Shown: positions 1 to 14,545 of the stretch, in pieces
How the letters are laid out: each line of letters opens with the position of its first letter
Position numbering within the stretch: position 1 is the stretch's first letter
Source: an archaeon
GTDB lineage: Archaea; Asgardarchaeota; Thorarchaeia; Thorarchaeales; Thorarchaeaceae
Length of the DNA: 14,545 bases
NCBI GenBank assembly: GCA_024276825.1
Contig: JAJRWI010000029.1
Location: 1 to 14,545 of the forward strand
Direction: 5' to 3'
The notes under the pieces: model-generated
What the model saw: only the letters and a program-made list of their open reading frames with translations
Told to the model about the DNA's origin: nothing
The model's database searches: none
Translations under genes and position numbers: made by a program

Positions 1-938
1 CCCATTCCCAACACCTGATTAGCCTCATATTATCACTCAACTCCATTCGATTTTTCGAAAGCATTTTTTGCATAATTTCACTTCAACGCCACAATATAAT
101 TGCCGCAACCACCTGAATATTAATTTTTATAGAGGCATTCTTTATCAACGAGCGTTTATGCTTATTCTCATTTTTATAAAAAACCTTCATATTTTTAATA
201 TTTTTGTATATGTTTGTGCAAACTTATTCCTATATAAATTATTTATGCCTGTATTCAATATATGAATATGACTTATTCCTAAGCCTGCCTGATGATCATT
301 AATTCATACTTATTATGTGAGTACCCCCTATATCTGTCGAGGATAATGGGGGTTATTTGAGTTGAAAATATACTAATCGCTTGCATATCTTGAAAAGTGA
401 GTATGAAGGATTTTCCCCATGGCAACCATTGCAGTTTTCAATACAAGCAAAATGAACTACTTTTAAAAATTATAAAAGAATAGTTATATTATGAAAAACA
501 ATGATTATGAAACAGAAAATATTAGAAAATGCCGACAAAAGACTAAAGTAAAAACAAATAACGGTGGTCGAAAAATCGTAGGATGTGCTGAAAAATAGAA
601 CAATAATGATGCAAGAAATCATCAGATTATAAAAGCATTATTTTGGAAAATGAATCTTAGATGAATTCGCTAAATCTTAATACATTTGTAAAATACTGAA
701 TTAGATCCAAAATTATAGCAAATAAAGCAGACGCGTTCAGATTAATAGATCTTGGACGGGTCTAGAAATTATAATCACACTATTCCAGAAAGTGATGCTG
801 AATTCAGATTCAATCTATATTTATTCCTCTTCATCATGTGACTATATTTTGATTGATAAAATCCATTTCCAAATCATCAAAAAAGAAATAAGTTCAATAT
901 TAGCTAAATCGACAATAAATTGTTTTGGAGGATGGTTC

Positions 939-1691
939 TTGCCTGTTGATGAAAGTTTCAAGGATGATGTGCGAAGACGAAATGCATCATGGAAAGAAAA
1001 AATGCTTCAACGCTATGCTCCAATCGAATCATTGGAATCATTGGATCTAAATGACACTCGTTTTATTCTGCAGAGAGTTGACTTCCCGTATAGTTGGCGG
1101 ACCACTATGGCTTGTCCCGTCTATGCATGGACGGTCGAGAAGAGGGGACACAAGCGCGAACCCTGCATACTAATCACAGAAACCTCCACGGTATGGGATG
1201 CGGAATACAAGGAGCTCATGCTTCTCTTCAATACCGAATTTACTATATATGATGCAGAAGGACCGCAACTTCAGACAATTATTGAGCTTGTGGACAAAGG
1301 AAAGCGTTCAACGCGAATTCCAGTTATGAATGAACGCACATTTTATGTTGACAGCTATGCTTATGCATTTGGAAGGTCGCAGGTCCCAGTCCCTGAGATT
1401 TTAGGACAGCCTGCATGGATTGTAGTCAGAGAGGATAATGAGGAGAGATGGTTTGTTCCTAGGGGTAAGGACCACTATCCGAACGTTGAACTGATCGACC
1501 GTGAGGGCAATCTGGCATTAAGAATCAATGGCTTATCCTTTATTGAAAAACTTTGGCAGGGTTTCAGCAAAATTAATTCTGGACCGCGGCATAGCCTTTA
1601 CCTAGAAGTTATCAACAAGGCTGTCCCCAAAGAAGTAGTTTTGTATCTGGCATCTCAGGCCATTCGTGGTCAATGGAACTTGCTTACCTAG
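939..1691 (+). CDS. Hypothetical protein (~250 aa), possible tubby C-terminal/LURP-one/scramblase-like fold
   Basis: ORF track gives 792..1691, but the first ~49 codons are AT-rich and intergenic-like. An in-frame TTG at 939 has GGAGG (927-931) 7 nt upstream, so it is the likelier start. Sequence is beta-rich with two 'F/V-x-I-x-D-x-E-G' hairpins (FTIYDAEG, VELIDREG) and a C-terminal hydrophobic helix (PKEVVLYLASQAIR). The CDS is solid; the fold is inference. Confidence 0.75.
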   Translation: MPVDESFKDDVRRRNASWKEKMLQRYAPIESLESLDLNDTRFILQRVDFPYSWRTTMACPVYAWTVEKRGHKREPCILITETSTVWDAEYKELMLLFNTEFTIYDAEGPQLQTIIELVDKGKRSTRIPVMNERTFYVDSYAYAFGRSQVPVPEILGQPAWIVVREDNEERWFVPRGKDHYPNVELIDREGNLALRINGLSFIEKLWQGFSKINSGPRHSLYLEVINKAVPKEVVLYLASQAIRGQWNLLT

Positions 1692-1845
1692 AATGAGATT
1701 TTGAAAAAGAGATAACGGTGACCTTGGGATGACTATGTTAAAGTGATTTCCGGCGTTAAATATAAACCATTTTAATAAAATCCAAAAAATGTAATATTTA
1801 GAATAATTAATATTGGCCAACAATGATGAATGCTATGGTGTTTGA

Positions 1846-2175
1846 ATGCAAATGACATTGCTTGATCCCAACGACTTTTTTCTATTTATGGCTGAATCAT
1901 TGATTGTTGTTGGAATACTGATCGCCACTCTTATTGCGTTACGAATGAGGATGAAATACCCAAAATTAGCAACTCCTGGTTGGGGGCTCATAATCTTAGG
2001 GCTTGTATTCATGCTATTGCATTCAATATTTGACGCTATTGATACTCTTCAATTGGGCGATGAGCTTGTAAAAATAATAAATGTACTGGATGGAAGTACA
2101 TTTGCAATGGGGATTCTGCTATTTGCTGTTGGAATTTACAGGATTGCAGCAATTGGAGCCCAAGAATGGAGGTAG
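1846..2175 (+). CDS. Small 3-TM membrane protein (paralog A)
   Basis: 109 aa with three hydrophobic segments, KYP after TM1 and FDAIDT after TM2. First gene of a tightly packed three-gene unit. Confidence 0.85.
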   Translation: MQMTLLDPNDFFLFMAESLIVVGILIATLIALRMRMKYPKLATPGWGLIILGLVFMLLHSIFDAIDTLQLGDELVKIINVLDGSTFAMGILLFAVGIYRIAAIGAQEWR

Positions 2176-2179
2176 TAAA

Positions 2180-2545
2180 ATGCAAGGTTTCATGATTGAA
2201 TTTAGTCCACCCTCCGATCCTCTGGAATTATTGAAAGCATGTTTGGACCTAGCTACAGCTATTCTCTTTGTTGTAGTTTTGATTGTCATTATTATTGCTG
2301 CTAAGAAATATCCTCTATTTGAAAGAAAAGACACACTTTATCCGTTGATTATTTTTGCTATTCTTGGTATCATTAGTACGGCAATGGATGCGTATGATGA
2401 ATGGTTCTGGTTCACCCCCAAAGAATTCTATGATTTCATCTGGAAGCCCACTAGGCTTATTCTTTTCATTGTAGCGATATTTATTCTAGTGTTTGCATTC
2501 CAGCGATTTTACAAAGTGTCAGAGCGTTTGTTCGGAGAAGATTGA
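2180..2545 (+). CDS. Small 3-TM membrane protein (paralog B, ~121 aa)
   Basis: Start reassigned from 2081 to ATG 2180, which has GGAGG at 2168-2172 and lies just after the upstream stop. Three hydrophobic segments, KKYP after TM1 and MDAYDE after TM2. Confidence 0.85.
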   Translation: MQGFMIEFSPPSDPLELLKACLDLATAILFVVVLIVIIIAAKKYPLFERKDTLYPLIIFAILGIISTAMDAYDEWFWFTPKEFYDFIWKPTRLILFIVAIFILVFAFQRFYKVSERLFGED

Positions 2546-3448
2546 ATGGCCCCAAAGATTAACGCGGTGCATATCATTCATCAGGATGGTATTCCAATTA
2601 TCAGTTCCAGACTAAGCGTGCATAAGGCTTCTGAAGTCAAATCTTTTGAAGACCTGTTCGGCGGCTTTTCAAGTGCGATAAACTCACTTATTCAACAACT
2701 TGGACATAAAGAATTGCGTTCAATTGAGGTAGAGAATGGAATCCTTGTCTATAGTTTCAAGAAGCCAATTATTTTCGTTGTCTTCGCTGATAGCCTTGCT
2801 AGTGAATATTTTGCAAAGATTCTAGTCAAGCAGATTGAGTACGAGTTCTTTCAGGAATATGGCGAATTATTAATGCAGGATGATGCTTATATCCGTGGTG
2901 AGCGTTACCTTGGGTTTAAATCCACAATAAACACGCTCTATGAACAGATGCTTCAAATTGACAGTAAATTCCCGCGACTTCTAGAATTCTTGCCAGCTTT
3001 CATCCCACTTCACTACATCTATGTGGTTGTCAATCTTGGTGAAGATATAATCAGAAAATACCCCCATGCAACAATCAAGCTTGTCAGAGATCTGCCCCTC
3101 TATTTTGAAGATAATATTGAAATTCAGCATCTTGTGGAACGAACAATTGGCAGATATGCAGGATTTCATATAATAGAAAGAATGGGTGATGAAACCATCA
3201 TTATGGACCAAAAGAACATATCCAAATTATTGAATGAGATCTCGGTTTGCAAGTACGATAAAAAGCATGATGCATTCAACATTATCCTATGTCCTATATG
3301 TCGAGGAAGAACTTCTGATAGGCCCATGTGCGACTTCTTCAGTGGCTTCATTGAAGGTGCTCTGCGTAATCCTAGCATGCAAGTAGAAGAAGTAAGGTGT
3401 AAAGCCCGTGGTGATGAGTTCTGCAGATTTCAGTTGAGCAGAAAATGA
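2546..3448 (+). CDS. Longin-like domain fused to a V4R domain
   Basis: N-terminus 'INAVHIIHQDGIPI...DLFGGFSSAINSLIQQLGHKELRSIEVENGILVY...IIFVVFAD' matches the Asgard longin pattern. C-terminus 'CPIC...PMCDFFSGFIEG...VEEVRCKARGDEFCRFQL' is a typical V4R signature. ATG directly abuts the upstream TGA (TGAATG). Confidence 0.85.
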   Translation: MAPKINAVHIIHQDGIPIISSRLSVHKASEVKSFEDLFGGFSSAINSLIQQLGHKELRSIEVENGILVYSFKKPIIFVVFADSLASEYFAKILVKQIEYEFFQEYGELLMQDDAYIRGERYLGFKSTINTLYEQMLQIDSKFPRLLEFLPAFIPLHYIYVVVNLGEDIIRKYPHATIKLVRDLPLYFEDNIEIQHLVERTIGRYAGFHIIERMGDETIIMDQKNISKLLNEISVCKYDKKHDAFNIILCPICRGRTSDRPMCDFFSGFIEGALRNPSMQVEEVRCKARGDEFCRFQLSRK

Positions 3449-3546
3449 TCCTCAATAACGCCTGCAATACTGGTATCTATAGGATTTTTATGAATTACAT
3501 GAACCATATCTTGTATGAATTTTATCAGCTTTCAAAATGAAGTACT

Positions 3547-3847
3547 AGTAAACGCTTGATACTTAATTTCCAAATGCTATGTATGCTAGACATCTATGAC
3601 ACCCTTCATACATGTAATTTGTAAACGCTCGATTAATTCTTGGAAATTGTTGGAAATTGTGTGCGTTTACTGGTGGCTCTTCATCATTAAATAGTAAATG
3701 CTATTCGCTACTATATGCGTCGAACTTTAATCAAACCAATCTAAGTTAAGGAGATATGAGTCTTATTTTGCTATGATTCGTTTGGTCTTTTTCTCTTAGT
3801 AAACGCTTATTATTCATCGCCATTTTGGCATAATATATACGTTTACA
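3547..3847. promoter_or_regulatory. Cluster of GTAAACG operator-like sites upstream of the geranylgeranyl reductase
   Basis: AGTAAACGCTTGAT 3547-3560; TGTAAACGCTCGAT 3620-3633; CGTTTAC (reverse) 3664-3670; degenerate AGTAAATGCT from 3693; AGTAAACGCTTATT 3798-3811; CGTTTAC (reverse) 3840-3846. Confidence 0.6.
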
Positions 3848-3917
3848 GCGGCTTGTTTTAATAGAAAGAAAATCAATGATATTATTTGTGGGTTAATATA
3901 GAATAATCGGGATTAAT

Positions 3918-5117
3918 ATGGAAACTTTAAAGGATGTTATCATTATTGGCGCAGGCCCTGCAGGCTTAATGGCTGCTCGACAACTTGCAATTAATGGTGT
4001 TGAAACCTTATTAATTACGAGAGAAATGAATGTTCCCGGTGAAGAGAAGGTCTGTGGTGGATTTATTCCAGCAAGAGCGCTTGAAGAGTTCAATATTGGC
4101 AATTTTGCAGGCGCATTTCCAATTCTTGGTGTTAGAATGAAGTTTCCAGGCACGGAAATTAAGCAGGTTGACTTTGATGAGCCCATTGGATATGATGCAA
4201 CTCGTGCTGATATAGGAAGGGCCCTTCTTCATCTTATTGATCAATCGATAGTAGAAATCAGGATGGGCCAATGTGTTGTAGGGTGTGTGGAAGAAAAGGA
4301 ATATTGTATTGTTCGCATGAAGGGTGAAAGTGGTATTGAAGGGATTCCAAGTAGGATCGTAATAGACGCAAGCGGGGTTTCACCAGTGACGAGTAAGAAC
4401 TCTTTAGTCAGACCCAGACTCACACCCCAGCAGCTTGGCTATGCGGTGCAATATCAAATGCGTAGAAATGACTCATTAAGTTTTGACCCAGTAATTGAGT
4501 TTTACTATGGTAGTGAGTTTTCACCGAAGGGCTATGCATGGATCTTCCCTAGAGGCAATGAAGCTGCGGTTGGGACCGGAGGGATTCTTTCTCAGGTCAA
4601 AAGCAATAGTCGTCAGACCATCGAGTATCTGAATCATCTACTTGAAAAATCACCTACTCTTCAGTTGAATGGCTCAATAGAGATAATCAAACAGGAGGCT
4701 GCGCTAATGCCCCTGGCGGGTATTGTGAAGCCGTCATATTCAAACAGGATTTTACTTGCAGGCGATGCTGCAGCTCATTGCTCTCCAATAAGTGGTGAGG
4801 GGATCTATTATTCAATGGTTTGTGGTGATCTTGCAGGTAAAGTTGCTGCAAGTGCAATTCAACAGAATGAGATCTCACGAAAGTTTCTGAAGCAATATGA
4901 AAAGGCGTGGATTAATAGAATTGGATCTGACCTCAAATGGGGGCTGTGGCTGCAAAAGCGATTGACAAAACAGGGTTCAAAAAGCTTGGGCTCTCAATTC
5001 TTGCAGGATGAAAAATCTTGCAGGATAATAGCAGAGATGTTGATTGGACAACGTTCGGTGAAAAGTTCAATTCTTGCAGCTCTTCCCAAATATCTTAAGG
5101 CCAAAATCCTTGGATAA
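3918..5117 (+). CDS. Geranylgeranyl reductase family FAD-dependent oxidoreductase (digeranylgeranylglycerophospholipid reductase-like)
   Basis: Contains DVIIIGAGPAG (FAD-binding), KVCGG, PKGYAWIFP, LLAGDAA and PISGEGIYYSM, the hallmark GGR motifs. 399 aa. Confidence 0.92.
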   Translation: METLKDVIIIGAGPAGLMAARQLAINGVETLLITREMNVPGEEKVCGGFIPARALEEFNIGNFAGAFPILGVRMKFPGTEIKQVDFDEPIGYDATRADIGRALLHLIDQSIVEIRMGQCVVGCVEEKEYCIVRMKGESGIEGIPSRIVIDASGVSPVTSKNSLVRPRLTPQQLGYAVQYQMRRNDSLSFDPVIEFYYGSEFSPKGYAWIFPRGNEAAVGTGGILSQVKSNSRQTIEYLNHLLEKSPTLQLNGSIEIIKQEAALMPLAGIVKPSYSNRILLAGDAAAHCSPISGEGIYYSMVCGDLAGKVAASAIQQNEISRKFLKQYEKAWINRIGSDLKWGLWLQKRLTKQGSKSLGSQFLQDEKSCRIIAEMLIGQRSVKSSILAALPKYLKAKILG

Positions 5118-5557
5118 GAAAGAATGTGTATAGATATATATTGGCAGGTCATTGAAATTGAAGTTTTGGATTTTGAAGAGTATGCTCAGATAATAGATAC
5201 TGCAATGCAATATCTCGATAGATTTAATCTCAAGATCATAAAAAAGCATTCCGTCCTGATGAATGAAAACATATGCTCTCTGAAGTCAAGAACATAATTG
5301 ATATCTAAAATAAAAATATGAAATCTCTGCATTAATCTATCAATGATATGTATCTTACATAAAGATAGCCAAAATTCATTAGTTCGCTTAATATTCTTTC
5401 CTTGAAAATTGCTGATATCAAACTCTGGACTGTCTGCATCCCTCCTGCCATAGAATTAATCTGCTGACTAAAATCATTGCCAGTTCAACAATTGCAGACA
5501 TTTGACAATTCATAAATAGAAAGATTTGGATTGTTGACTATACTAGAGGGAAAAGAG

Positions 5558-6034
5558 ATGGATAAGGATCACATTCTTGAATTTATCAATAGGCAGATTG
5601 CGCTTGAAGAGAAAATAATAACAATTGTTAAAGAGAATGTTGAAAAGCTTGGAAATGATTTCTTAAAGGACCTATTGCTTGGAATTAGCCAAGACTCATT
5701 AAAGCATGCTGCGCTTCTCAAGTCATTGAAAAAAGCTATTGAGGGCCCAACCCCATTCATTAGTACTCAAGAGCGAGACAAGATTGCAAGGGGAATTGAC
5801 AAACATATACAATTGGAAAAACAAGCAGTTGAGACCTACACTCAATTAATGAACGAGTCTGATGACAAACAAGTGCGGACAATTGCTGCAATGATCCGTG
5901 AAGATGAGCTGCGACATCATGCCCTGTTGAAAGAACTCTACAAGACCATTGTTGAATCTGAAACCCTAACCGAGGATATGATTTGGGACATGGTCTGGAG
6001 AGACTCACCGTGGCATGGAAGTCCAGGCGGTTGA
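5558..6034 (+). CDS. Ferritin-like/rubrerythrin-like four-helix diiron protein
   Basis: Duplicated helix pairs with E...DSxKH (LEEK...QDSLKH) and E...EDELRHH ligand motifs. ATG 5558 follows GAGGG and is preferred over TTG 5531. C-terminal tail WDMVWRDSPWHGSPGG. Confidence 0.85.
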   Translation: MDKDHILEFINRQIALEEKIITIVKENVEKLGNDFLKDLLLGISQDSLKHAALLKSLKKAIEGPTPFISTQERDKIARGIDKHIQLEKQAVETYTQLMNESDDKQVRTIAAMIREDELRHHALLKELYKTIVESETLTEDMIWDMVWRDSPWHGSPGG

Positions 6035-6329
6035 ACCTAAATAATGGCATGATTGACAAGGTTAACAATATAACCAAATCGTCTGAATTTGATTAAAAGT
6101 ACAGTACCTTAATTATTATTGAATCAAATAGACTTGGATAACTATCAGAGAATTTGATCAAATATAATGGCTTTCAAAACCTTCTCGTGCACCGAAACAT
6201 TGGGATTGATTCTTAAATTGTTCTTCGAAAAAACCTTGAAATAATGTCAAATTTCTAAGGTATATGGAGTTTGAATGTAATTTTGACTGAATTAAAACGC
6301 TTTAATAGTTGAGAGAACATCTAACTGCT

Positions 6330-7523
6330 ATGACTTCCGAAGTGTATTTTGGCTCAGTTCTGCATGGTGCAAGAAATCAAGGTGCTGCCCTTGCTCGCAA
6401 ATTGGACCTGATAATTGAACAACTTGACTTCTCCACTATTGAGAAGAAGGAAAAAGTGGCCATTAAAATGCACCTTGGCTTTAGAGATGGCTATCAAACA
6501 GTCCCAGTCTTCTTTGTCAGACGGATTGTAAAGGCAATAAGGAAGCAGGGGGCTTTTCCATTCATAACCGATAATCCAACTGCAGTTTACAATGCTGTTG
6601 ATAGGGGCTATACTCAAGAGACCTGTGGATGTCCGCTCATTCCAATTGCTGGAGTAAAAGATGGTTATACTAAGACTACATTTATTGACTTCCAGAATGT
6701 TGATACTCTAGAGATGGGTGGCGTTCTACACGATGCTGATGTTTTGGTCGATCTCACTCATGCAAAAGGACATAATTCATCTGGCTTTGGAGGAGCAATT
6801 AAGAACATTGCACTTGGCGGATATCATGGTCCAAGTAGGTGGAGAAAGATTCATGGAGTTGAACAGAGCATTCCTTACTGGGATAATGAAAAATGCACTC
6901 CCGAGCATGCAAAGAAGTTGGTGAAGGCTTGCCCGGACAACCTAATAAGCTATGATGAAGAGAAGCATAAACTGACACTCAATTTTGGTATGTGCAATCA
7001 GTGCGGAGAATGCATTAAGGTAGATGAGGGTGTGGGATCGTTATCATTGAAGCCAGAGAATTTTGCTCTGTTTCAGGAACTTATGGCAAGGTCTGCCAAT
7101 GAGGTTCTCAAAACATTTGATAAAAACAAGCAGTTCTTCATCACATTCGCGATTGATATTACTGCTCTTTGCGATTGTTGGGGCTTTGGTCAACCTGTGG
7201 TCATAAATGATATTGGTGTACTTGGAAGTAGAGATATTGTTGCCATAGAGCAAGCAACACTAGACCTGATTGCAAATGAAGGCCTGATTGAGAACATGAT
7301 TCCCCCATATATTCGCAATCCAATTCTTGATCCATCTATTGATCTGCATCCATTTGCACGCTTGCATGGTCCAATGAAGGATCCCTATATTGTCACCAAG
7401 TATGCAGAAGAGCTGGGTATGGGAAGCAGAGAATACAAACTGATTGAAGTGCTCTCTATTGAAGAGGCTAAACGAATCGACTTCAAGTCCCAGACTTTTG
7501 AAGACCAGCCAACATTCTTCTAG
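6330..7523 (+). CDS. DUF362 domain Fe-S protein with inserted ferredoxin-like domain
   Basis: Motifs KVAIKMHLG, THAKGH...GFGGAIKNIALG, ACP...CNQCGEC, ITALCDC, DIGVLGSRDIVAIEQATLDL and AEELGMGSREY are all typical of DUF362. Start is probably ATG 6330 (MTSEVYF); the track gives TTG 6309. Confidence 0.9.
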   Translation: MTSEVYFGSVLHGARNQGAALARKLDLIIEQLDFSTIEKKEKVAIKMHLGFRDGYQTVPVFFVRRIVKAIRKQGAFPFITDNPTAVYNAVDRGYTQETCGCPLIPIAGVKDGYTKTTFIDFQNVDTLEMGGVLHDADVLVDLTHAKGHNSSGFGGAIKNIALGGYHGPSRWRKIHGVEQSIPYWDNEKCTPEHAKKLVKACPDNLISYDEEKHKLTLNFGMCNQCGECIKVDEGVGSLSLKPENFALFQELMARSANEVLKTFDKNKQFFITFAIDITALCDCWGFGQPVVINDIGVLGSRDIVAIEQATLDLIANEGLIENMIPPYIRNPILDPSIDLHPFARLHGPMKDPYIVTKYAEELGMGSREYKLIEVLSIEEAKRIDFKSQTFEDQPTFF

Positions 7524-7531
7524 AATGACAT

Positions 7532-8089
7532 TTACTGCTGGATGTCCACACCAAAGACTCTTCTCAAGACTCCGCCTAATGGAATGCTTGCAAGAACATA
7601 GAGAGTCCAATAGTAAAGTCCAAAGCCCACACCCGGAATCTCCACACCAATCGAATTAGAGAGAAACGGGAGTACTTTATGTGCATTGAAAGGAAGAATG
7701 GCCACGGGAAGTGCCCCATAAACTGCTGATAGTAGGAAGAATACAATGAGAATAGGAATATACGTGTAGCACATTGGTTTCATTCGAATGGTGGCAAGCT
7801 TGCCTTGCAGTGCCATAACTCTCCCCTGCTGAGCCATGACCTCCTCCATGAGTATGGCATCTCCAGTCTTGCGAGCTCTCTTCCATTTTTCCTGCCACTC
7901 CTTAACAGTAGTAGTGATCTGTCTGACTTCCTCCATATCAACAAGTCTCTTCATTGCATATATTGATATAATGTTGATTCCAACACCTACAATAACAATG
8001 AACACCGTTGATCCAGGTATGATCATCAGTGGTCCCATGATAGCTTGGATTGCAAGTATTATATCACTGAAGATATCCATTGAACTCAC
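7532..8089 (-). CDS. DUF106 / EMC3-TMCO1 (Oxa1 superfamily) membrane insertase homolog
   Basis: Shows TM1, a cytosolic coiled coil (LVDMEEVRQI...EWQEKWKRARKTGD), MKPMCYTYIPILIVFF, and a C-terminal 'GLYYWTLYVLAS...VLRRVFG'. This is the canonical archaeal DUF106 pattern. GTG start preceded by GCAGGT. Confidence 0.9.
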   Translation of the reverse strand: MSSMDIFSDIILAIQAIMGPLMIIPGSTVFIVIVGVGINIISIYAMKRLVDMEEVRQITTTVKEWQEKWKRARKTGDAILMEEVMAQQGRVMALQGKLATIRMKPMCYTYIPILIVFFLLSAVYGALPVAILPFNAHKVLPFLSNSIGVEIPGVGFGLYYWTLYVLASIPLGGVLRRVFGVDIQQ

Positions 8090-8412
8090 ACCTGCTTTGA
8101 CATATTCACCCTGTTTTAAGCGTAGCGAATATGTATCCTAAATCGATTCAGACCTTATCCGTGTTATATCCCAAACATAAGTGAATAATACAAATGAACA
8201 AGTACTATTTTTTTATTGAGTATACGTTAGCATTCCGCGCAAGCCCTTCCATAACCTAATGTAGTAAACGCTCATCTATTCCGCGCCATCAAGCTCTGAC
8301 TTTTCGACTGGAAATTAAGGTTATGTTTCATTTAATATATATATAGAGGCCATATTTGTGCTAAATTGGGCAAATATTCTGCACAAAAAGCAGTATCGAA
8401 TATTATATCCAA

Positions 8413-8467
8413 ATGAAACGTTTACTGATTTGTATGATGGGGATTTAAATAGTAGTAAACGTTTACT
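8413..8467 (+). promoter_or_regulatory. Promoter with TATA box flanked by two palindromic operators
   Basis: ATGAAACGTTTACT 8413-8426; TTTAAAT TATA-like box 8444-8450; perfect palindrome AGTAAACGTTTACT 8454-8467; GGGAGGG Shine-Dalgarno immediately before the 8492 CDS. A further half-site AGTAAACGCTCATC lies at 8263-8276. Confidence 0.7.
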
Positions 8468-8491
8468 GTAAAAGTCAGCCGCCGGGAGGGC

Positions 8492-8770
8492 TTGACCGAA
8501 ATGATGATGTTCAGCAGAATGTTAAGAAGGCAAGGATTCTATCGGGTTAAAAATCAGAGCGAACCAGTCTACATGAAACATCATGTTGGCCTTGGTGGAG
8601 TATATGTCAGAATTGAAAACCGCAGAGCATTGATAACTGTTCGAGACCTTGGCATCGAGGAAGAATTCACTAGAGTCAAGCAGCTTGAGAAGTTCATCAA
8701 TGAACTTGAAGACGAAGCATACAGAAAGAAGTGTTTCATTGTTCACAAAATGAAAGGCATGGGGTCATAG
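8492..8770 (+). CDS. Small basic hypothetical protein (89-92 aa)
   Basis: Clean ORF with GGGAGGG upstream. Start is TTG 8492 or ATG 8501. It has its own promoter, and the predicted pattern is alpha, then several beta strands, then alpha. Confidence 0.8.
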   Translation: MTEMMMFSRMLRRQGFYRVKNQSEPVYMKHHVGLGGVYVRIENRRALITVRDLGIEEEFTRVKQLEKFINELEDEAYRKKCFIVHKMKGMGS

Positions 8771-8806
8771 ACTGCAGGGGTTCTCCTCATCTCTAAATTG
8801 CGATCC

Positions 8807-8855
8807 GAGTGTGATTGGGCGGGCATATTGTGGGGGTGCCTGCTCAAACTCACTC
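8807..8855 (+). other. 20-bp GC-rich stem-loop in the 3' region of the small gene (structured UTR, terminator or ncRNA)
   Basis: GAGTGTGATTGGGCGGGCAT (8807-8826) pairs with GTGCCTGCTCAAACTCACTC (8836-8855): 15 Watson-Crick pairs, 3 G-U pairs, 2 mismatches and a 9-nt loop. Confidence 0.65.
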
Positions 8856-8968
8856 AACAATATTATGGTTCAACATATTTTCTTATTGAATTATTTCTTT
8901 AATTAAAATAATCAATACATTATGTTGGAATAATAAACTAAAACCTCAAAAAGCACACTGTATTACAA

Positions 8969-9583
8969 TTGATGATAAAATTGGACAACATTACAATTCT
9001 GGGATTTGGTGACAGCTTGACATCAGGATATCCTGGCTATGATCCAGACTATTTGTCGGGCAATATAAGGTCTCAGTATGGATTCTGGCTGATTGAATAT
9101 GCAAAGAAGGAATATGTCAACAATCTGATCTTTCAAAACAGAGGAATTCCAGGAGAGCTTGCAACCCAGATGTATCCTCGGCTTGGGCAAATTCTATCAC
9201 AGCAGCAATACAATATTGTGATTATCCTTGGAGGTTCTAATGATATAGGATGGGGTGTTCCTATTAACAAGATCTATAAGAGCTTGGAAAGGATGTGGAG
9301 GCTGGCATTGACAAAGAACTCTAAAGTGGTGGCATGCACTGTTCCGCCAATTGCAGACCATTTTATGGATATTCAAAAAAAGCAACATGAATTAAATGAA
9401 ATGATTATTAATGGAATAATCTCTGATGACATGATAGTTGTTGATCTATTTACTGATCTTTCTTCTGACGATGGACTCTTGAAAAATGAATATGATGTTG
9501 GTGATGGCTTGCATCTTAGTGTTGAAGGTTATCGAAAAATGGGTGAGTCAATCTGGCAAAATGGAGTTAGAAACTGGATATGA
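8969..9583 (+). CDS. SGNH/GDSL family hydrolase (lipase/esterase)
   Basis: Block I FGDSLT, block II NRGIPG, block III LGGSND, block V DGLHLS. Start is 8969 (TTG) or 8972 (ATG). Confidence 0.93.
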   Translation: MMIKLDNITILGFGDSLTSGYPGYDPDYLSGNIRSQYGFWLIEYAKKEYVNNLIFQNRGIPGELATQMYPRLGQILSQQQYNIVIILGGSNDIGWGVPINKIYKSLERMWRLALTKNSKVVACTVPPIADHFMDIQKKQHELNEMIINGIISDDMIVVDLFTDLSSDDGLLKNEYDVGDGLHLSVEGYRKMGESIWQNGVRNWI

Positions 9584-9661
9584 TTTAATCATTTCTGTGG
9601 AGATTTTCTGATAATTCTAAATATTTATGAGTTGAATTTCAGTCTACTTAGATGAAAGCAA

Positions 9662-10927
9662 ATGAAGGAGAGCAACCTGAAAAATCATATTGAAACTGCA
9701 ATCATTTTACTTATGCTTGCTTCAATCTTTCTTATAATTCCCTACAATGGCATAGATAATGATGCACAAATTAACACCAATGTCAATATGCAAGCCAATC
9801 TTTCACAGACAAATCATCCTGCCATTATTATCGAATCAGATACTGATTTTGAAAGTCAGGGTTTTCCAGGTTCTGGGACATATCAAGATCCTTATCGAAT
9901 TGAGGGATTCACGATATCAACATCTGAAATATGCATAAACATCACATCAACAAACTCTTATTTTATCATTAAAGATTGCATTTTAAAAGGCAGCAACATT
10001 GGCATCGGCATCCATCTTAAAAATGTGTCCCATGGAACTCTGATGAACAACACAATACGCAATAAAACTGTGGGGATTCAAGCAGAGTCGGTCTATAATA
10101 TGACAATTGCGAATAATACAATTTACCATAATGTGCAAGATGGGGTCACTCTTATTTCAGGTATTTTAATCAATATCACTGGAAATATTGTCTTCCAAAA
10201 TGGCAGAAATGGGATCTTAATCTATCAAGATTCAAGAAATAACACATTAACATGGAATTTTGTTCACAGCAACGATGCCTACGGAATAGTATTCGAACAG
10301 TATAACAACTATAGCCTTCTACACTCAAACATTCTAGCGGCAAGTTATGCAGGAATAGCGATGGACAACGGTTATTGCAATTCATGGAACATTTCTGATG
10401 AAGGAAACTTTTGGATTGACTATTCAGGTGTGGGTTGGCGCATAATTAATGGTAATGCTGGCAGCATTGATTATCATCCTCAACTCCTACCATTATCATA
10501 CGATATCTTCCCCCCTACAATAGATCATCCGCTCGACTTGCTCACTTATACTCCAAATGCCACTGGTACCATTATTTGGCACGCATATGATACCTACCCC
10601 AAAGAATACGTGCTTGTCATAGATGGCGTTCAATTGCCTTCACAATCTTGGAATGGTGGCCCTATTTCCGCAGGTTTTGATAATCTCTATGAGGGGCTCT
10701 ATAATTTTACATTGATTGTATACGATCAAGCTGATAATTGGGTGAGTGACACTGTATGGGTTTATGTCACACAAAAAGCACTACCACCTCCCCCAAGTAC
10801 TACAACAACTAATAGAATTCCTCAAGGTGGCAATGCAATCCAACAGTTCCAAATCATAATCACTGCTGTTTCTGGGGGATTAGTCTTGACTATTGTCTTG
10901 ATTGAAATTCATAAGCGCCGCAAATAA
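9662..10927 (+). CDS. Membrane-anchored NosD/right-handed beta-helix surface protein
   Basis: N-terminal hydrophobic segment; 'GFPGSGTYQDPYRIEG'; repeated NNTI/NN..GI beta-helix turns; GNFWIDY...D.HP; an Ig-like module; a PPPPSTTTT linker; C-terminal TM followed by HKRRK. Confidence 0.88.
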   Translation: MKESNLKNHIETAIILLMLASIFLIIPYNGIDNDAQINTNVNMQANLSQTNHPAIIIESDTDFESQGFPGSGTYQDPYRIEGFTISTSEICINITSTNSYFIIKDCILKGSNIGIGIHLKNVSHGTLMNNTIRNKTVGIQAESVYNMTIANNTIYHNVQDGVTLISGILINITGNIVFQNGRNGILIYQDSRNNTLTWNFVHSNDAYGIVFEQYNNYSLLHSNILAASYAGIAMDNGYCNSWNISDEGNFWIDYSGVGWRIINGNAGSIDYHPQLLPLSYDIFPPTIDHPLDLLTYTPNATGTIIWHAYDTYPKEYVLVIDGVQLPSQSWNGGPISAGFDNLYEGLYNFTLIVYDQADNWVSDTVWVYVTQKALPPPPSTTTTNRIPQGGNAIQQFQIIITAVSGGLVLTIVLIEIHKRRK

Positions 10928-10982
10928 TCTATCATTTCACTTTCATCTACTGCCAAGCAACTGATAACAATGTTGACTCTAC

Positions 10983-12158
10983 TTAGGGATGTCTAACATT
11001 TGGTTTTACAAATGCCAGCAGTATTATTGCAATCAGAGCAAGTATTAGAGAGTACTGAAATGCTGCGATGGCTCCGAATGTGTACCAGAAGTACCCTATG
11101 AAAATCCCTGCTGGCAATGCACTAATGCCAACAGACATCTGAAAAGCACCTATTATGCTTGCTCTTCTCTCTTGCTCGACAAGATCGGAGATCAAAGAGG
11201 TCTGCACTGGATCAAGTGCTCCTGCTGAAAGTCCAAAGAACACAAATAATGGAATCACACTTATCATATCGTTGACAATCATGGCCCAGAGAGATGTAAA
11301 GATGAGCATAATAAATGCTATCATCAAGATTGGCTTTCTTCCCAATTTGTCAGATGCTCTTCCAAATGGATATGCACTCAAAGAGTATACGATTGTGAAT
11401 AAAATATAGAGCAATGGCAATTGTGTTTCCGTGTAGCCAAAACCTCCTGAGAAGAGAATAAGAAAAGAATAGCTCATGGTCGCAAGGGCAAAAACAACAG
11501 AAGCCACCAAGAATAGTTTCAGATCTCGGTTGAGTCCTCGAAAGCTAATCCCCTTGAAGACATCTTTTCCTCTTTTCTCTTTGATTAAAACTGCAATAAT
11601 AATCACAGAACCGATTGCAGGGATTGTAGAGAATAAGATGATAGTATAATATGCCATTGCTGGATCAGCAAACCACCATAGTAGAAAGGAAAACAAGAAG
11701 TATGTGATGATTGACCCAACAACTGCTCCTGCACTATCCATAGCCCTTAGAACTCCAAATGCACTTCCTCGCTTATTCTCACCAGCATGATCGGCAACTA
11801 TTGCATCTCTTGGTGGACCTCGCATTTTTCCAAGTCTGTCTAGTGTCTTCCAGAAAACAATATGGTAGAATGTGCGTGAGATTATGAAACCAAGTCTGGA
11901 CAACATTGCCATGAAATATCCTGCTGTTATGAATGCTTTGCGCTTGCCTGTTCTGTCTGAAATATAACCAGAGCCAATCTTGGAGAGTGATGCAACCGTT
12001 AATGCTAGTCCATCAATCACACTGATTTGAAACACATTCAGTAAGAGAATGTTTGATAAGAATGTAGGCCATATAGGTGCAATCATATCAGTCGACGCGT
12101 CATTTAGTAATGAAGCTGTTCCAAAGATTAGAGTTGGATCACGCCTTTCTTCTGTCAT
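10983..12158 (-). CDS. MFS transporter
   Basis: About 12 TM segments, with motif A in both halves (GYISDRTGKRK, GRASDKLGRK) and DRLGKMRGPPRDA. Confidence 0.93.
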   Translation of the reverse strand: MTEERRDPTLIFGTASLLNDASTDMIAPIWPTFLSNILLLNVFQISVIDGLALTVASLSKIGSGYISDRTGKRKAFITAGYFMAMLSRLGFIISRTFYHIVFWKTLDRLGKMRGPPRDAIVADHAGENKRGSAFGVLRAMDSAGAVVGSIITYFLFSFLLWWFADPAMAYYTIILFSTIPAIGSVIIIAVLIKEKRGKDVFKGISFRGLNRDLKLFLVASVVFALATMSYSFLILFSGGFGYTETQLPLLYILFTIVYSLSAYPFGRASDKLGRKPILMIAFIMLIFTSLWAMIVNDMISVIPLFVFFGLSAGALDPVQTSLISDLVEQERRASIIGAFQMSVGISALPAGIFIGYFWYTFGAIAAFQYSLILALIAIILLAFVKPNVRHP

Positions 12159-12602
12159 TTATAATGCCTTGCTGAAGTAATGAAATTGCGATAATATGTT
12201 GGCTTATTTCTTTATGGTTGATGTAATTTATCAATTTGCGGTAATTTGTATAAGCGGTTCTAGAATAAAAAGGTCCTAATGATGAAAATGGTTCAATTAT
12301 CGAGCATGACAGTAAAGAAAGTCCATAACAGATTCATGTCTTGTCATTCATTTTTAATTTGACAATTTTTGATATCTGAGTTCTGTCTGCCCAGAAAACG
12401 GCACTGGGTACATTTCAAAATAGAGTATTGTGAGATATTTAATAAACTCTTAGATCCTAGGCCCCTAGTTGGTTCGTTGTGTAATGAGTGTCCAGCTTTG
12501 TCCAAGCTCTGCGCATCTATTCGCATCCCTATAATTGCCATGCCTTGAATTCATGCACGCTAAAGCTATAATTTGAAACATAATGAATATCTATATAATA
12601 AC

Positions 12603-12645
12603 TGCTATCATAGCAATTATTCATATAAATATCGCTATCATAGTG
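12603..12645. promoter_or_regulatory. Two palindromic operators flanking the TATA-like box of the PadR gene
   Basis: Palindrome TGCTAT-C-ATAGCA at 12603-12615 and near-copy CGCTATCATAGTG at 12633-12645, 30 bp apart, with ATATAAAT between them. Confidence 0.7.
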
Positions 12646-12664
12646 AACTGATGTGTGAGTCTAT

Positions 12665-13528
12665 ATGAATAGTAATGAATTAAGAGAATTCATTCTTCGA
12701 AATTTCCACAAGCAACTCTTTCATGGCTATCAGGTATTTCAGGCGCTTGAAGAAATGCGAATTTCTATTAGTACCACGCGATTGTATAAAGTTCTTAATG
12801 GCATGCTTTCAGAAGGACTGCTAAAGGATAAATGGGTAAAGAGTGAAGCAGGACCCCAAAAGAGGGTTTACAAACTCACAAAGCTGGGCCATCAAGAAAG
12901 GAACAAGATTCTTAGAAGGGCAATTAGTATAGTTCATGAGTTCTATTTAGAATATATCAATAGCTTTCCGAAAGAAAAGAACCGTGTGTACAATATTTGC
13001 ACGCTTCTGAGTAAGCATGTTTCAAAAAATGGAACAATTGGCAGTCTGGTATGCAACTTCTCAGAATCAACTAGGTATATTCTTAAAGCTCTACAAAAGG
13101 CTGCACACAAGGCAAAAAAATACATGATTGTAACTTGTGGACTCCCATCATCAGGATACGAGGGATGGTCGATCCTTGAGGGCAGATGCAGCAATATTCC
13201 TCTAAAGCGAAGTTTTCTTGATCTTTTATTCCTGCCGGGACTGGATATGCATTTCTGCAAGAACCTTGATATTGATGAATGCATAAATGTGTTGAAGCCA
13301 GATGGCACACTAGCCTTCTTAACCCCTGCAATATTGCTAAAAAAACGAGATGATGCAATGGCCATAGGCGAATTCATTGAGTTTCTGATGCATGCAAGTG
13401 TGGACGGCCAAATACCTCTCTTCGTATGGAATTTAATTGATGATCTTAAAAACAGGTTCAAATCAATGGAAATCAAGGAGTATGGAGATATCGCTCTTGT
13501 ACTTGCCAAGCAAAAAAAAGAATCATGA
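12665..13528 (+). CDS. PadR-family winged-helix regulator fused to a degenerate class I methyltransferase-like domain
   Basis: N-terminal PadR pattern FHGYQV...RLYKVLNGMLSEGLL...WVKSEAGPQKRVYKLTKLG. C-terminal IPLKRSFLDLL...ECINVLKPDGTLAF resembles Methyltransf_11 motifs but no GxGxG is visible. Confidence 0.85.
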   Translation: MNSNELREFILRNFHKQLFHGYQVFQALEEMRISISTTRLYKVLNGMLSEGLLKDKWVKSEAGPQKRVYKLTKLGHQERNKILRRAISIVHEFYLEYINSFPKEKNRVYNICTLLSKHVSKNGTIGSLVCNFSESTRYILKALQKAAHKAKKYMIVTCGLPSSGYEGWSILEGRCSNIPLKRSFLDLLFLPGLDMHFCKNLDIDECINVLKPDGTLAFLTPAILLKKRDDAMAIGEFIEFLMHASVDGQIPLFVWNLIDDLKNRFKSMEIKEYGDIALVLAKQKKES

Positions 13529-13602
13529 TTAAGCCAATTTCAAGATTACTTGGTATAGAATTTCAGATTTACACATAACTTTCGAAAAACAAACTGTAAG
13601 CT

Positions 13603-13629
13603 GGCTATCATCGGTATGCTACCATAGCT
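13603..13629. promoter_or_regulatory. Tandem degenerate copies of the GCTAtCATAGC operator upstream of the last gene
   Basis: GGCTATCATCGGT 13603-13615 and TGCTACCATAGCT 13617-13629, followed by a TTTAAA TATA-like box at 13645-13650 and GGAGG at 13680-13684. Confidence 0.6.
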
Positions 13630-13692
13630 AAGTTACAATACGAATTTAAATGCTGATTTTTGGGTGACATTTGAAAGCAGGAGGCAGACATT

Positions 13693-14545
13693 TTGCTAAA
13701 GCGTAAAAATATGGCGAAAATAGCACTGTTCCTACTCGTATTCTCCATGGCGATTACATTTGCCTTTACAAACATTAGTAAGGCAGATACGGATGTCACA
13801 TCATTTGACAGCTGGAGGCCATGGACGAGTAGCTGTGGTTGTCACAGCAGTGCGACTAATATACAAGTGGATGGAGAAGTCATTTTTGACAGTCCCACAA
13901 TAGTGAAACCTGGCGATCAATTTACAATAAAAGTAAAGGTCAGTGGGTTTGTAGACGCCGCAGGTGGAGCAATCACATTGGGATTGAATGTACTTGATTT
14001 CGACAACGGTCTTTTTATGACAGAAACCAAGGCTCAAGCCCTTCATGGCGTTGATTCTAATGGCGATTCAACAGATTGGACTCCAGCCTTTACATTAACC
14101 GCACCCAGTGAACCAGGAGTATATACTCTACTTGCCTATGGTGTTGATGGGCAAGGCGGAACTGACTCTTGGGTCTGGGTAATGGGAACCAAGCAGATAG
14201 TAGTAAGTGCCGGAGCATACACCGACCTTGATCTATATGCTGATGATGCGGCCAACTATCTCATTGCAAATGCCGTTCAAGATGGCAATGGTCTAAAATG
14301 GGCAGAATATAACGGCACGACTGCTAAATTCAAGACCGGCTATCTGAAGGGTGCAGCAGGCATAGGTGAATACTTCCTCGAAATGTACCGCTATTCAGTT
14401 AGCAATCCATTCTTTGAGGGAGTTTCACCTGATGCAACAATATACCTTGATGTTGCTAAAGAAACAGCAATATGGTTGATGTACCGTGCGATTCCTGAGT
14501 TCAATGGCTACAAGTTGCCACAGGCATTTGAGGCTGACAACACAA
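13693..14545 (+). CDS. Secreted protein, 3'-truncated by the window edge: signal peptide, CxCH/Reeler-like beta domain, then LanC-like alpha/alpha-toroid repeats
   Basis: Absent from the ORF track because there is no stop in the window. Manual translation from TTG 13693 (GGAGG 8 nt upstream; alternative ATG 13711) stays open to the end: MLKRKNMAKIALFLLVFSMAITFAFTNISKA-DTD...SSCGCH...VKPGDQFTIKVKV...TLTAPSEPGVYTLLAYGVDG...AANYLIANAVQDGNGLKW...TGYLKGAAGIGEYFLEMYR...YLDVAKETAIWL. Confidence 0.85.
   Translation, partial: MLKRKNMAKIALFLLVFSMAITFAFTNISKADTDVTSFDSWRPWTSSCGCHSSATNIQVDGEVIFDSPTIVKPGDQFTIKVKVSGFVDAAGGAITLGLNVLDFDNGLFMTETKAQALHGVDSNGDSTDWTPAFTLTAPSEPGVYTLLAYGVDGQGGTDSWVWVMGTKQIVVSAGAYTDLDLYADDAANYLIANAVQDGNGLKWAEYNGTTAKFKTGYLKGAAGIGEYFLEMYRYSVSNPFFEGVSPDATIYLDVAKETAIWLMYRAIPEFNGYKLPQAFEADNT

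Follow-up and report, generated by a model that had tools for sequence, protein, structure and literature searches.

The question raised by this locus is what three tightly packed archaeal genes do together when two of them encode small membrane proteins without relatives in Pfam and the third encodes a soluble protein with two folds known from eukaryotic membrane trafficking. The genes, here named A, B and C, lie on a stretch of 14,545 nucleotides (nt) from a member of the Thorarchaeaceae (Asgardarchaeota; GenBank assembly GCA_024276825.1, contig JAJRWI010000029.1, positions 1 to 14,545 of the forward strand), to which we refer as the window. A and B have three transmembrane (TM) segments each, and C is a fusion of a longin-type and a V4R/Bet3-fold domain (Table 1). 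From the sequence of the window, an original prediction had proposed that the genes are co-translated, that A and B form a membrane heterodimer that recruits C, and that signals are passed on by protein contact, for example to a small GTPase, as in a eukaryotic receptor-adaptor arrangement. Our follow-up analysis shows that the unit is a real and previously undescribed membrane-associated longin-V4R module of Asgard archaea, and that A, B and C most likely build a membrane complex.

Genes A, B and C are tightly coupled and conserved together

The proposed coupling was confirmed by the sequence. Gene A ends with a TAG stop codon at 2173-2175 and the ATG of gene B follows at 2180, leaving a gap of 4 nt, and the TGA of gene B (2543-2545) directly abuts the ATG of gene C at 2546 (gap of 0 nt). 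On both sides the unit is flanked by larger gaps, of 154 nt upstream (1692-1845) and 469 nt downstream (3449-3917). Overlapping or near-abutting A/B and B/C junctions are repeated at 10 orthologous loci, which places the coupling far above chance. In addition, a G-rich motif equivalent to the GGAGG of gene B is found in the conserved W-G/W-R codons of A at every orthologous locus compared. A scan for promoters and terminators of the bacterial type, which is not applicable to archaea, gave results at the level of shuffled sequences. Pfam searches with A, B and C bore out the absence of kinase, helix-turn-helix, cyclase and GTPase domains from the unit, and HAMP, MCP and receiver domains were not found either.

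A profile of B matches 46 of 400 Asgard genomes, belonging to 22 of 85 genera. In total, 44 loci from no fewer than nine taxonomic families were fetched, and the three genes are adjacent at all of them, except at three loci that are cut by contig ends; the possibility that the three genes are not co-conserved is thereby refuted. Likewise, no full-length C orthologue in the taxonomic family of the window lacks A and B directly upstream. The unit spans Thor-, Heimdall-, Loki-, Hel- and Borrarchaeal lineages, and its named carriers include Candidatus Heimdallarchaeum aukensis and endolithica, the cultured Candidatus Lokiarchaeum ossiferum (NEF87_000078) and Candidatus Harpocratesius repetitus, as well as Borrarchaeum and Helarchaeota. 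The order of the genes is C-A-B in the Borr- and Helarchaeal lineages, and in family f30 A-B is convergent with C. The flanking genes are metabolic or housekeeping genes that are unrelated among the loci. That the adjacency survives such rearrangement is a strong argument for a functional unit. When the flanks of the 44 loci were clustered, no fourth conserved gene emerged, as nothing except Ras-like genes recurs beyond close relatives.

An exhaustive profile search among 1.84 billion cluster representatives returned only 20 clusters of B, of which the most distant relatives still adjoin V4R genes. In a tree of C, each taxonomic family forms one clade, with 8 changes of family label, the minimum possible. 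The tree contains two subtypes: proteins from the Thor, Heimdall and f20 families have about 290-300 amino acids (aa), and those from the Loki, Hel, Borr, f30 and f2 families have 255-289 aa. On these sequence comparisons, A-B-C is an Asgard-specific operon that is mostly vertically inherited. Some Thorarchaeal genomes carry a second, diverged paralogue of C (C') just upstream, resulting in the order C'-A-B-C (L021, 521-3127; L038, 3661-6270; L017, 3412-7173); in one case a luciferase-like monooxygenase fragment is located in between. The C' paralogues form one clade inside the Thor branch of the C tree, and this duplication mirrors the A/B pair. Loci of this kind would suggest a stoichiometry of A:B:C2.

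The same data bear on the idea that the unit is a conflict or defence module, in which the V4R domain would sense a small molecule derived from infection and the small TM proteins would act as membrane-damaging effectors. A 2026 preprint (10.64898/2026.10.19.760177) describes systems in which V4R sensors act through effectors, one of them a 2-TM domain that is predicted to permeabilise membranes, and a patchy distribution such as that of the unit would fit this idea. However, A, B and C have no match in PADLOC-DB 2.0 at E-values up to 0.1, their housekeeping or metabolic flanks are no defence islands, and inheritance follows taxonomy without signs of frequent transfer. Moreover, A and B do not evolve fast but are well conserved, and neither an asparaginase nor a ParA partner is present. 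We regard a role in defence as very improbable.

Protein C combines a longin domain with a V4R domain

The AlphaFold2 (AF2) model of C, made from 30 homologues, reached a predicted local distance difference test (pLDDT) score of 84 and a predicted template modelling score of 0.81. Its N-terminal domain consists of strands at residues 5-12 and 17-22, a helix at 34-52, strands at 58-62, 65-72 and 75-81, and a helix at 84-105. This beta-beta-alpha-beta-beta-beta-alpha order of longin elements lacks the N-terminal helix that a roadblock domain has. In structural comparisons with VIA-align, the domain matched the longin domain of VAMP7 (Z 13.8, 2.3 A over 121 residues), Sec22b (Z 13.6), Fuzzy (Z 12.6), synbindin (Z 12.3), SRX (Z 11.9) and sedlin (Z 11.0), and Foldseek returned Sec22b with a template modelling score of 0.71. 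No longin family of Pfam was matched by C at E-values up to 1. Going by predicted structure and fold search only, the N-terminus of C is a longin domain.

Weak matches to the N-domain of C were also obtained at loci of another kind. At one of them (L022, G000:C19, 4542-7563), two adjacent genes encode proteins of 303 and 431 aa with a longin-like N-terminus, which gave weak matches to Intu/Fuz longin domains, and winged-helix C-terminal parts. They are followed by a gene for a ParA/MinD-type ATPase of 250 aa. Pairs of this type recur in many related genomes, and together with the ATPase the pair resembles the 'ParA-wHTH system' (ParA with a winged helix-turn-helix) of preprint 10.64898/2026.10.19.760177.

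The C-terminal domain (approximately residues 166-300) is modelled as helices and a four-stranded sheet, and residues 245-297 match the V4R family of Pfam (PF02830) with an E-value of 1.6e-12 and 47.7 bits, against a cut-off of 31. Its best matches in VIA-align were the V4R sensor domains of MopR, PoxR and DmpR (Z 13.1-13.4, root-mean-square deviation 2.6-2.9 A over about 130 residues), and Bet3/TPC6 (Z 12.1-12.4), Thor TRAPPC3 (Z 12.2) and MJ1460 (Z 11.8) were matched as well. Because the bacterial sensor type and the Bet3 type nearly tie, within about one unit of Z, we did not assign C to the TRAPPC3 subfamily. In a profile search of PDB sequences with C, only MJ1460 was found (E 0.0066) and Thor TRAPPC3 was not matched, indicating that C belongs to a separate V4R subfamily. 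At least 44 of 45 family members share five cysteines (C249, C252, C262, C285 and C293), which suggest a probable zinc site. Thor TRAPPC3, of which structures have been solved, binds zinc through four cysteines (Tran et al. 2024, Commun Biol 7:273; PMC10933270), and the conserved cysteines of C are found at the corresponding place.

A and B are a pair of paralogous membrane proteins

Three hydrophobic segments are present in both A and B, and none in C. Both membrane proteins have a K-Y-P loop after the first TM segment (residues 37-39 in A and 43-45 in B), and neither matches a Pfam family. BLASTP of A against B found no significant match, and hhalign on alignments of Thorarchaeal sequences only gave a probability of 2% (E 0.023). 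The relationship became detectable only once distant lineages had joined the alignments: 43 sequences of A and 43 of B were then aligned by hhalign over 108 columns with a probability of 98.4% (E 4.7e-15). In addition, the A profile matches B orthologues of distant lineages with E-values of 1e-9 to 1e-5. As judged from these profiles, A and B are full-length paralogues. A word-based homologue search for A returned 2 matches only, and the orthologues of A were therefore collected from the loci. The paralogy supports the idea of a membrane heterodimer, in which the pairing of A with B is plausible.

The topology of both proteins was predicted from their charges. Across the family, loop 1 has on average 3.4 K+R and 0.2 D+E in A, and 4.0 K+R and 0.6 D+E in B. 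Loop 2 of A has 1.0 K+R and 6.0 D+E, and the N-termini and loop 2 of A and B range from 2.9 to 6.0 D+E on average. These counts place loop 1 with the K-Y-P motif in the cytoplasm, and the N-terminus and loop 2 outside, in A as well as in B. For A, this corresponds to an N-terminus outside, a basic K-Y-P loop (33-45) inside and an acidic loop (60-84) outside. The predicted cytoplasmic face of the pair would then comprise the basic loops and the helical tail of B, which terminates in F-x-x-R-L-F-G-E-D/E. In one branch of B (L060, 4650-6668; P0068, P0070 and P0074), a strongly acidic, D/E-rich C-terminal tail of 70-130 residues sits after the conserved R-L-F-G, with the A gene and the V4R gene still on the flanks.

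B is the best conserved of the three proteins, with 57-69% identity within Thorarchaeal genomes compared to 45-56% for A and 44-53% for C. In A, at least 41 of 43 orthologues retain E17, D63, D66, T67 and W108, and G63, E74, W77 and K89 of B are nearly invariant. The AF2 model of B is a three-helix bundle (pLDDT 90.4) in which a short two-stranded sheet links the N-terminus to loop 2. In the PDB, this model matched the coiled coil of PcsB best (Z 9.3), followed by BAR domains, ORAI, VTC and Mrp G, all below the noise level of helical bundles in this fold search (about Z 13). A feature search of the protein atlas with B returned unnamed clusters only, and no known membrane family could be assigned.

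According to the charge-based topology, the best-conserved residues lie at the outer face (E17, D63, D66 and T67 of A; E74, W77 and K89 of B), where they are acidic or aromatic. This suggests a different role for the pair, in which A and B would form a small cation-binding or cation-conducting 6-TM unit by means of a ring of outer carboxylates, and C would gate it when a metabolite binds to the V4R domain. The higher conservation of B compared to C and the function of V4R domains as ligand sensors in PoxR, MopR and DmpR are in line with such a channel, and paired small paralogous membrane proteins are a frequent transporter design. However, A and B are not similar to any transporter or channel family in Pfam, and the matches of the B model to ORAI, VTC and Mrp subunits (Z 7.5-8.9) are within the helical-bundle noise. 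Furthermore, three TM helices per subunit without polar residues deep in the membrane are thin for a pore, and the longin domain would be left without a role. A channel appears unlikely to us.

Ras-like genes next to the unit

The suggestion that a small GTPase receives the output of the unit has found no support so far. In only 3 of 22 genera is a Ras-like gene located beside the unit. The genes concerned are not orthologues of each other, and their frequency is near the rate expected by chance. In family f30 (L055, 2733-4985; L026, 4344-6615), a Ras-like GTPase gene, a gene for a protein of 267-269 aa and gene C, as the last one, form a string of overlapping or near-abutting genes with which A-B is convergent. 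In Borrarchaeum, a GTPase gene and a gene for a 193-aa protein lie beside B, and in the Helarchaeal genome G157 a GTPase fusion of 352 aa is encoded 194 nt upstream of C-A-B. The proteins next to the GTPases in the first two cases (X, 267 aa, and Y, 193 aa) match no Pfam family and have no similarity to each other. A single GTPase orthologue that travels with the unit was considered and rejected, since the three adjacent GTPases are not mutual best matches and belong to different subfamilies.

These genes are of interest for the view that the unit is a membrane-anchored proto-TRAPP, in which C, tethered by A and B, would be an exchange factor or a recruitment platform for a Ras/Rab/Arf-like GTPase; a lipid or ligand in the Bet3-like pocket would trigger the recruitment or activation of a Rab/Arf-like GTPase. 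C does contain both folds of the TRAPP core in one chain, longin as in Bet5/Trs23/Trs20 and Bet3, and its structural matches include synbindin, sedlin, Bet3, TPC6 and Thor TRAPPC3. Longin domains also recur in guanine nucleotide exchange factors and GTPase-activating proteins such as MON1-CCZ1 and Fuzzy-Inturned, which C matches as well. Moreover, a functional interaction of longin, TRAPPC3 and GTPase proteins in Asgard archaea has been argued for (Tran et al. 2024, PMC10933270), and Ras-family genes adjoin the unit in the three genera described. Against this view, the adjacency is confined to these genera and is absent in G156, the sister genome of G157, and no conserved GTPase orthologue accompanies the unit. 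Each of these genomes contains 10-60 Ras-like genes, with 28 in the 2.9-Mb genome to which the window belongs. By chance, a GTPase within two genes of the unit is therefore expected in about one genus (rough estimate, P about 0.06-0.1). On the contig of the window there is no GTPase among the matches listed, and the V4R domain of C matches the bacterial phenol sensors as well as it does Bet3. We consider a proto-TRAPP improbable, both as a tethered exchange factor or platform and as a switch operated by a bound lipid or ligand. The GTPase link is a lead and no finding.

A proposed model of the A-B-C complex

The complex was predicted with all three chains, C being the scored partner. The interface score ipSAE was 0.60 (0.61, 0.59 and 0.60 in the individual runs), compared to 0.00 for the best of three controls, which was rated as weak support. 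The runs shared at least 96% of their contacts, and the pLDDT of the partner was at least 77. The pass mark of ipSAE is reached by 58 of 80 solved complexes and by 2 of 110 mismatched pairs; scores of 0.60 or less are found for only 7 of the 80 solved complexes and for both mismatched pairs that passed.

Taking the gene coupling, the co-conservation, the A/B paralogy, the two folds of C and the charge-based topology as established, we somewhat favour a model in which the A/B heterodimer holds C at the cytoplasmic face of the membrane, with the V4R domain as the binding site of a small hydrophobic ligand and the longin domain as a docking platform. A and B would pair as a pseudo-symmetric 6-TM heterodimer, both with the N-terminus outside and the C-terminus inside as predicted from the charges. 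A strictly conserved cluster of carboxylates and aromatic residues (E17, D63, D66 and T67 of A with D23, D70, D73, E74 and W77 of B) would occupy the outer face. C would be held at the other, cytoplasmic side, where the K-Y-P loops with their basic charge and B's helical tail lie. Its V4R/Bet3-fold domain, with the probable zinc site formed by the conserved cysteines, may bind a small hydrophobic ligand or lipid, and its longin domain may be the docking platform for another, downstream protein. The output would thus be a protein contact at the membrane, neither catalysis nor DNA binding.

Several observations weigh against this model. The three-chain prediction returned no contacts or interface, so that the docking position of C is inferred, and for a guess that was not likely beforehand, scores in the band of that of A+B+C are wrong more often than they are right. 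The fold search with the B model yielded generic helical-bundle matches only, and the entries from the ESM Atlas were unnamed or unrelated. The unit is also patchy: it is present in 14 of 85 genomes of its own family and in 0 of 28 and 0 of 17 genomes of two large genera, indicating that whatever the unit does is dispensable. Finally, the strong conservation of the outward residues of A and B suggests that the membrane pair does more than anchor C.

Several parts of the original prediction thus stand only in part. For the recruitment of C by A and B, the difference in ipSAE from the controls gives weak support, and the missing contacts speak against it. The docking of C on the K-Y-P loops or the C-terminal tails is consistent with their predicted cytoplasmic position, where C could reach them, and the three-chain model returned no contacts that would place it there. 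The comparison with a eukaryotic receptor and its adaptor is an analogy and no finding. A plain anchor would agree with the data just as well, and so would a channel that has a regulatory subunit.

Comparison with known systems

A fusion of longin and TRAPPC3 is already in print once. Tran et al. (2024, PMC10933270) modelled one Heimdallarchaeal longin-TRAPPC3 protein (MBD3190748.1) with AF2 and reported that operons rarely link longin, TRAPPC3 and GTPase parts. By its described domains, this protein has the same layout as C, with an N-terminal longin and a C-terminal TRAPPC3/V4R domain, and the C family found here includes Heimdallarchaeal members. In contrast to the unit described here, that report concerns one sequence and is silent on membrane partners, on the operon context and on the distribution. 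A literature search, covering papers other than subscription-only ones, found no published description of the 3-TM pair or the operon.

Thor TRAPPC3 (PDB 7yh3 and 7yh2) and Bet3/TRAPPC3 have their fold in common with the C-terminal domain of C. They are, however, single-domain proteins of about 155 aa that form dimers, whereas C also has a longin domain and is encoded in an operon together with two membrane proteins. The V4R domains of PoxR, MopR and DmpR, the best structural matches to residues 166-300 of C, have a Zn-Cys site of their own and a pocket for small ligands. In these proteins V4R is fused to AAA+ sigma-54 activators that control transcription, unlike in C, which has no ATPase or DNA-binding part.

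The eukaryotic TRAPP core, composed of longin proteins (Bet5, Trs23 and Trs20) and Bet3-family proteins, combines the same two folds as C and acts at membranes. TRAPP is assembled from separate subunits into a hetero-oligomer, its exchange activity on Rab has been demonstrated, and none of the subunits is an integral membrane protein. In C, on the other hand, the folds are fused, the putative tether consists of two 3-TM proteins, and the connection to a GTPase is no more than a lead. Longin or roadblock domains held at the membrane by a separate anchor are also known from SRX of SR-alpha on SR-beta and from Ragulator on LAMTOR1, and SRX is among the structural matches of C. In these cases a GTPase with a single TM helix or a lipidated peptide serves as the anchor rather than a pair of 3-TM paralogues, and there is no sequence relationship.

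Other features of the window

The positions of the unit and its candidate signals are collected in Table 1. Directly upstream, an open reading frame of 299 aa (792-1691, forward strand) without a Pfam family was found, which is not located beside the unit at any other examined locus. The heptamer GTAAACG occurs in 9 copies on both strands, confined to two intergenic regions of the window (3548-3846 and 8264-8466), compared to 0.5 copies expected from shuffled sequences. The first cluster is flanked by gene C on one side and by the geranylgeranyl-reductase gene at 3918 on the other. The clusters are probably an operator array for some regulator, and the array is no part of the three-gene unit at other loci. 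On the reverse strand (7532-8089), the window also encodes a membrane protein of 185 aa that is EMC3/TMCO1-like (PF01956, E 3.3e-17), an ordinary gene for an insertase of the archaeal Oxa1-superfamily type.

Table 1. Positions of genes A, B and C, the domains of C and candidate expression signals in the window
Feature	Positions	Strand	Remarks
Upstream intergenic region, candidate promoter	1692..1845	+	154 nt, AT-rich; read from sequence
TATA-like TTAAATATAAA	1756-1766	+	Inside the upstream gap; read from sequence
Gene A, 109-aa 3-TM membrane protein	1846..2175	+	No Pfam family
GGAGG, Shine-Dalgarno-like motif for gene B	2168..2172	+	Within the last codons of gene A
Gene B, 121-aa 3-TM paralogue of A	2180..2545	+	No Pfam family
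GGAG, Shine-Dalgarno-like motif for gene C	2534..2537	+	Within the conserved G-E-E/D codons of gene B
Gene C, 300-aa soluble longin + V4R/Bet3-fold fusion	2546..3448	+	Pfam, AF2 model
Longin-type domain of C, about residues 2-140	2549..2965	+	AF2 model and fold search
V4R/Bet3-TRAPPC3-fold domain of C, about residues 166-300	3041..3445	+	Pfam V4R and fold search

Significance

The literature widely treats the longin, roadblock, TRAPPC3 and small-GTPase genes of Asgard archaea as raw material of membrane trafficking in eukaryotes, but almost nothing ties these genes to membranes or to one another. The unit described here is a counter-example, as a strictly conserved operon links a protein that has both TRAPP-core folds with a dedicated pair of membrane proteins that had not been named before. 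It is also tractable, with 530 residues in all, no confusion by paralogues, and its presence in a cultured species. It thereby offers a handle on where in the cell an Asgard longin/TRAPPC3 protein works, what it binds and whether it acts on GTPases. Even if A and B proved to be a mere anchor, or a channel regulated by a ligand, they would still represent a new, Asgard-restricted membrane protein family. If, on the other hand, the unit were a proto-TRAPP, it would be a direct prokaryotic forerunner of membrane-identity signalling.

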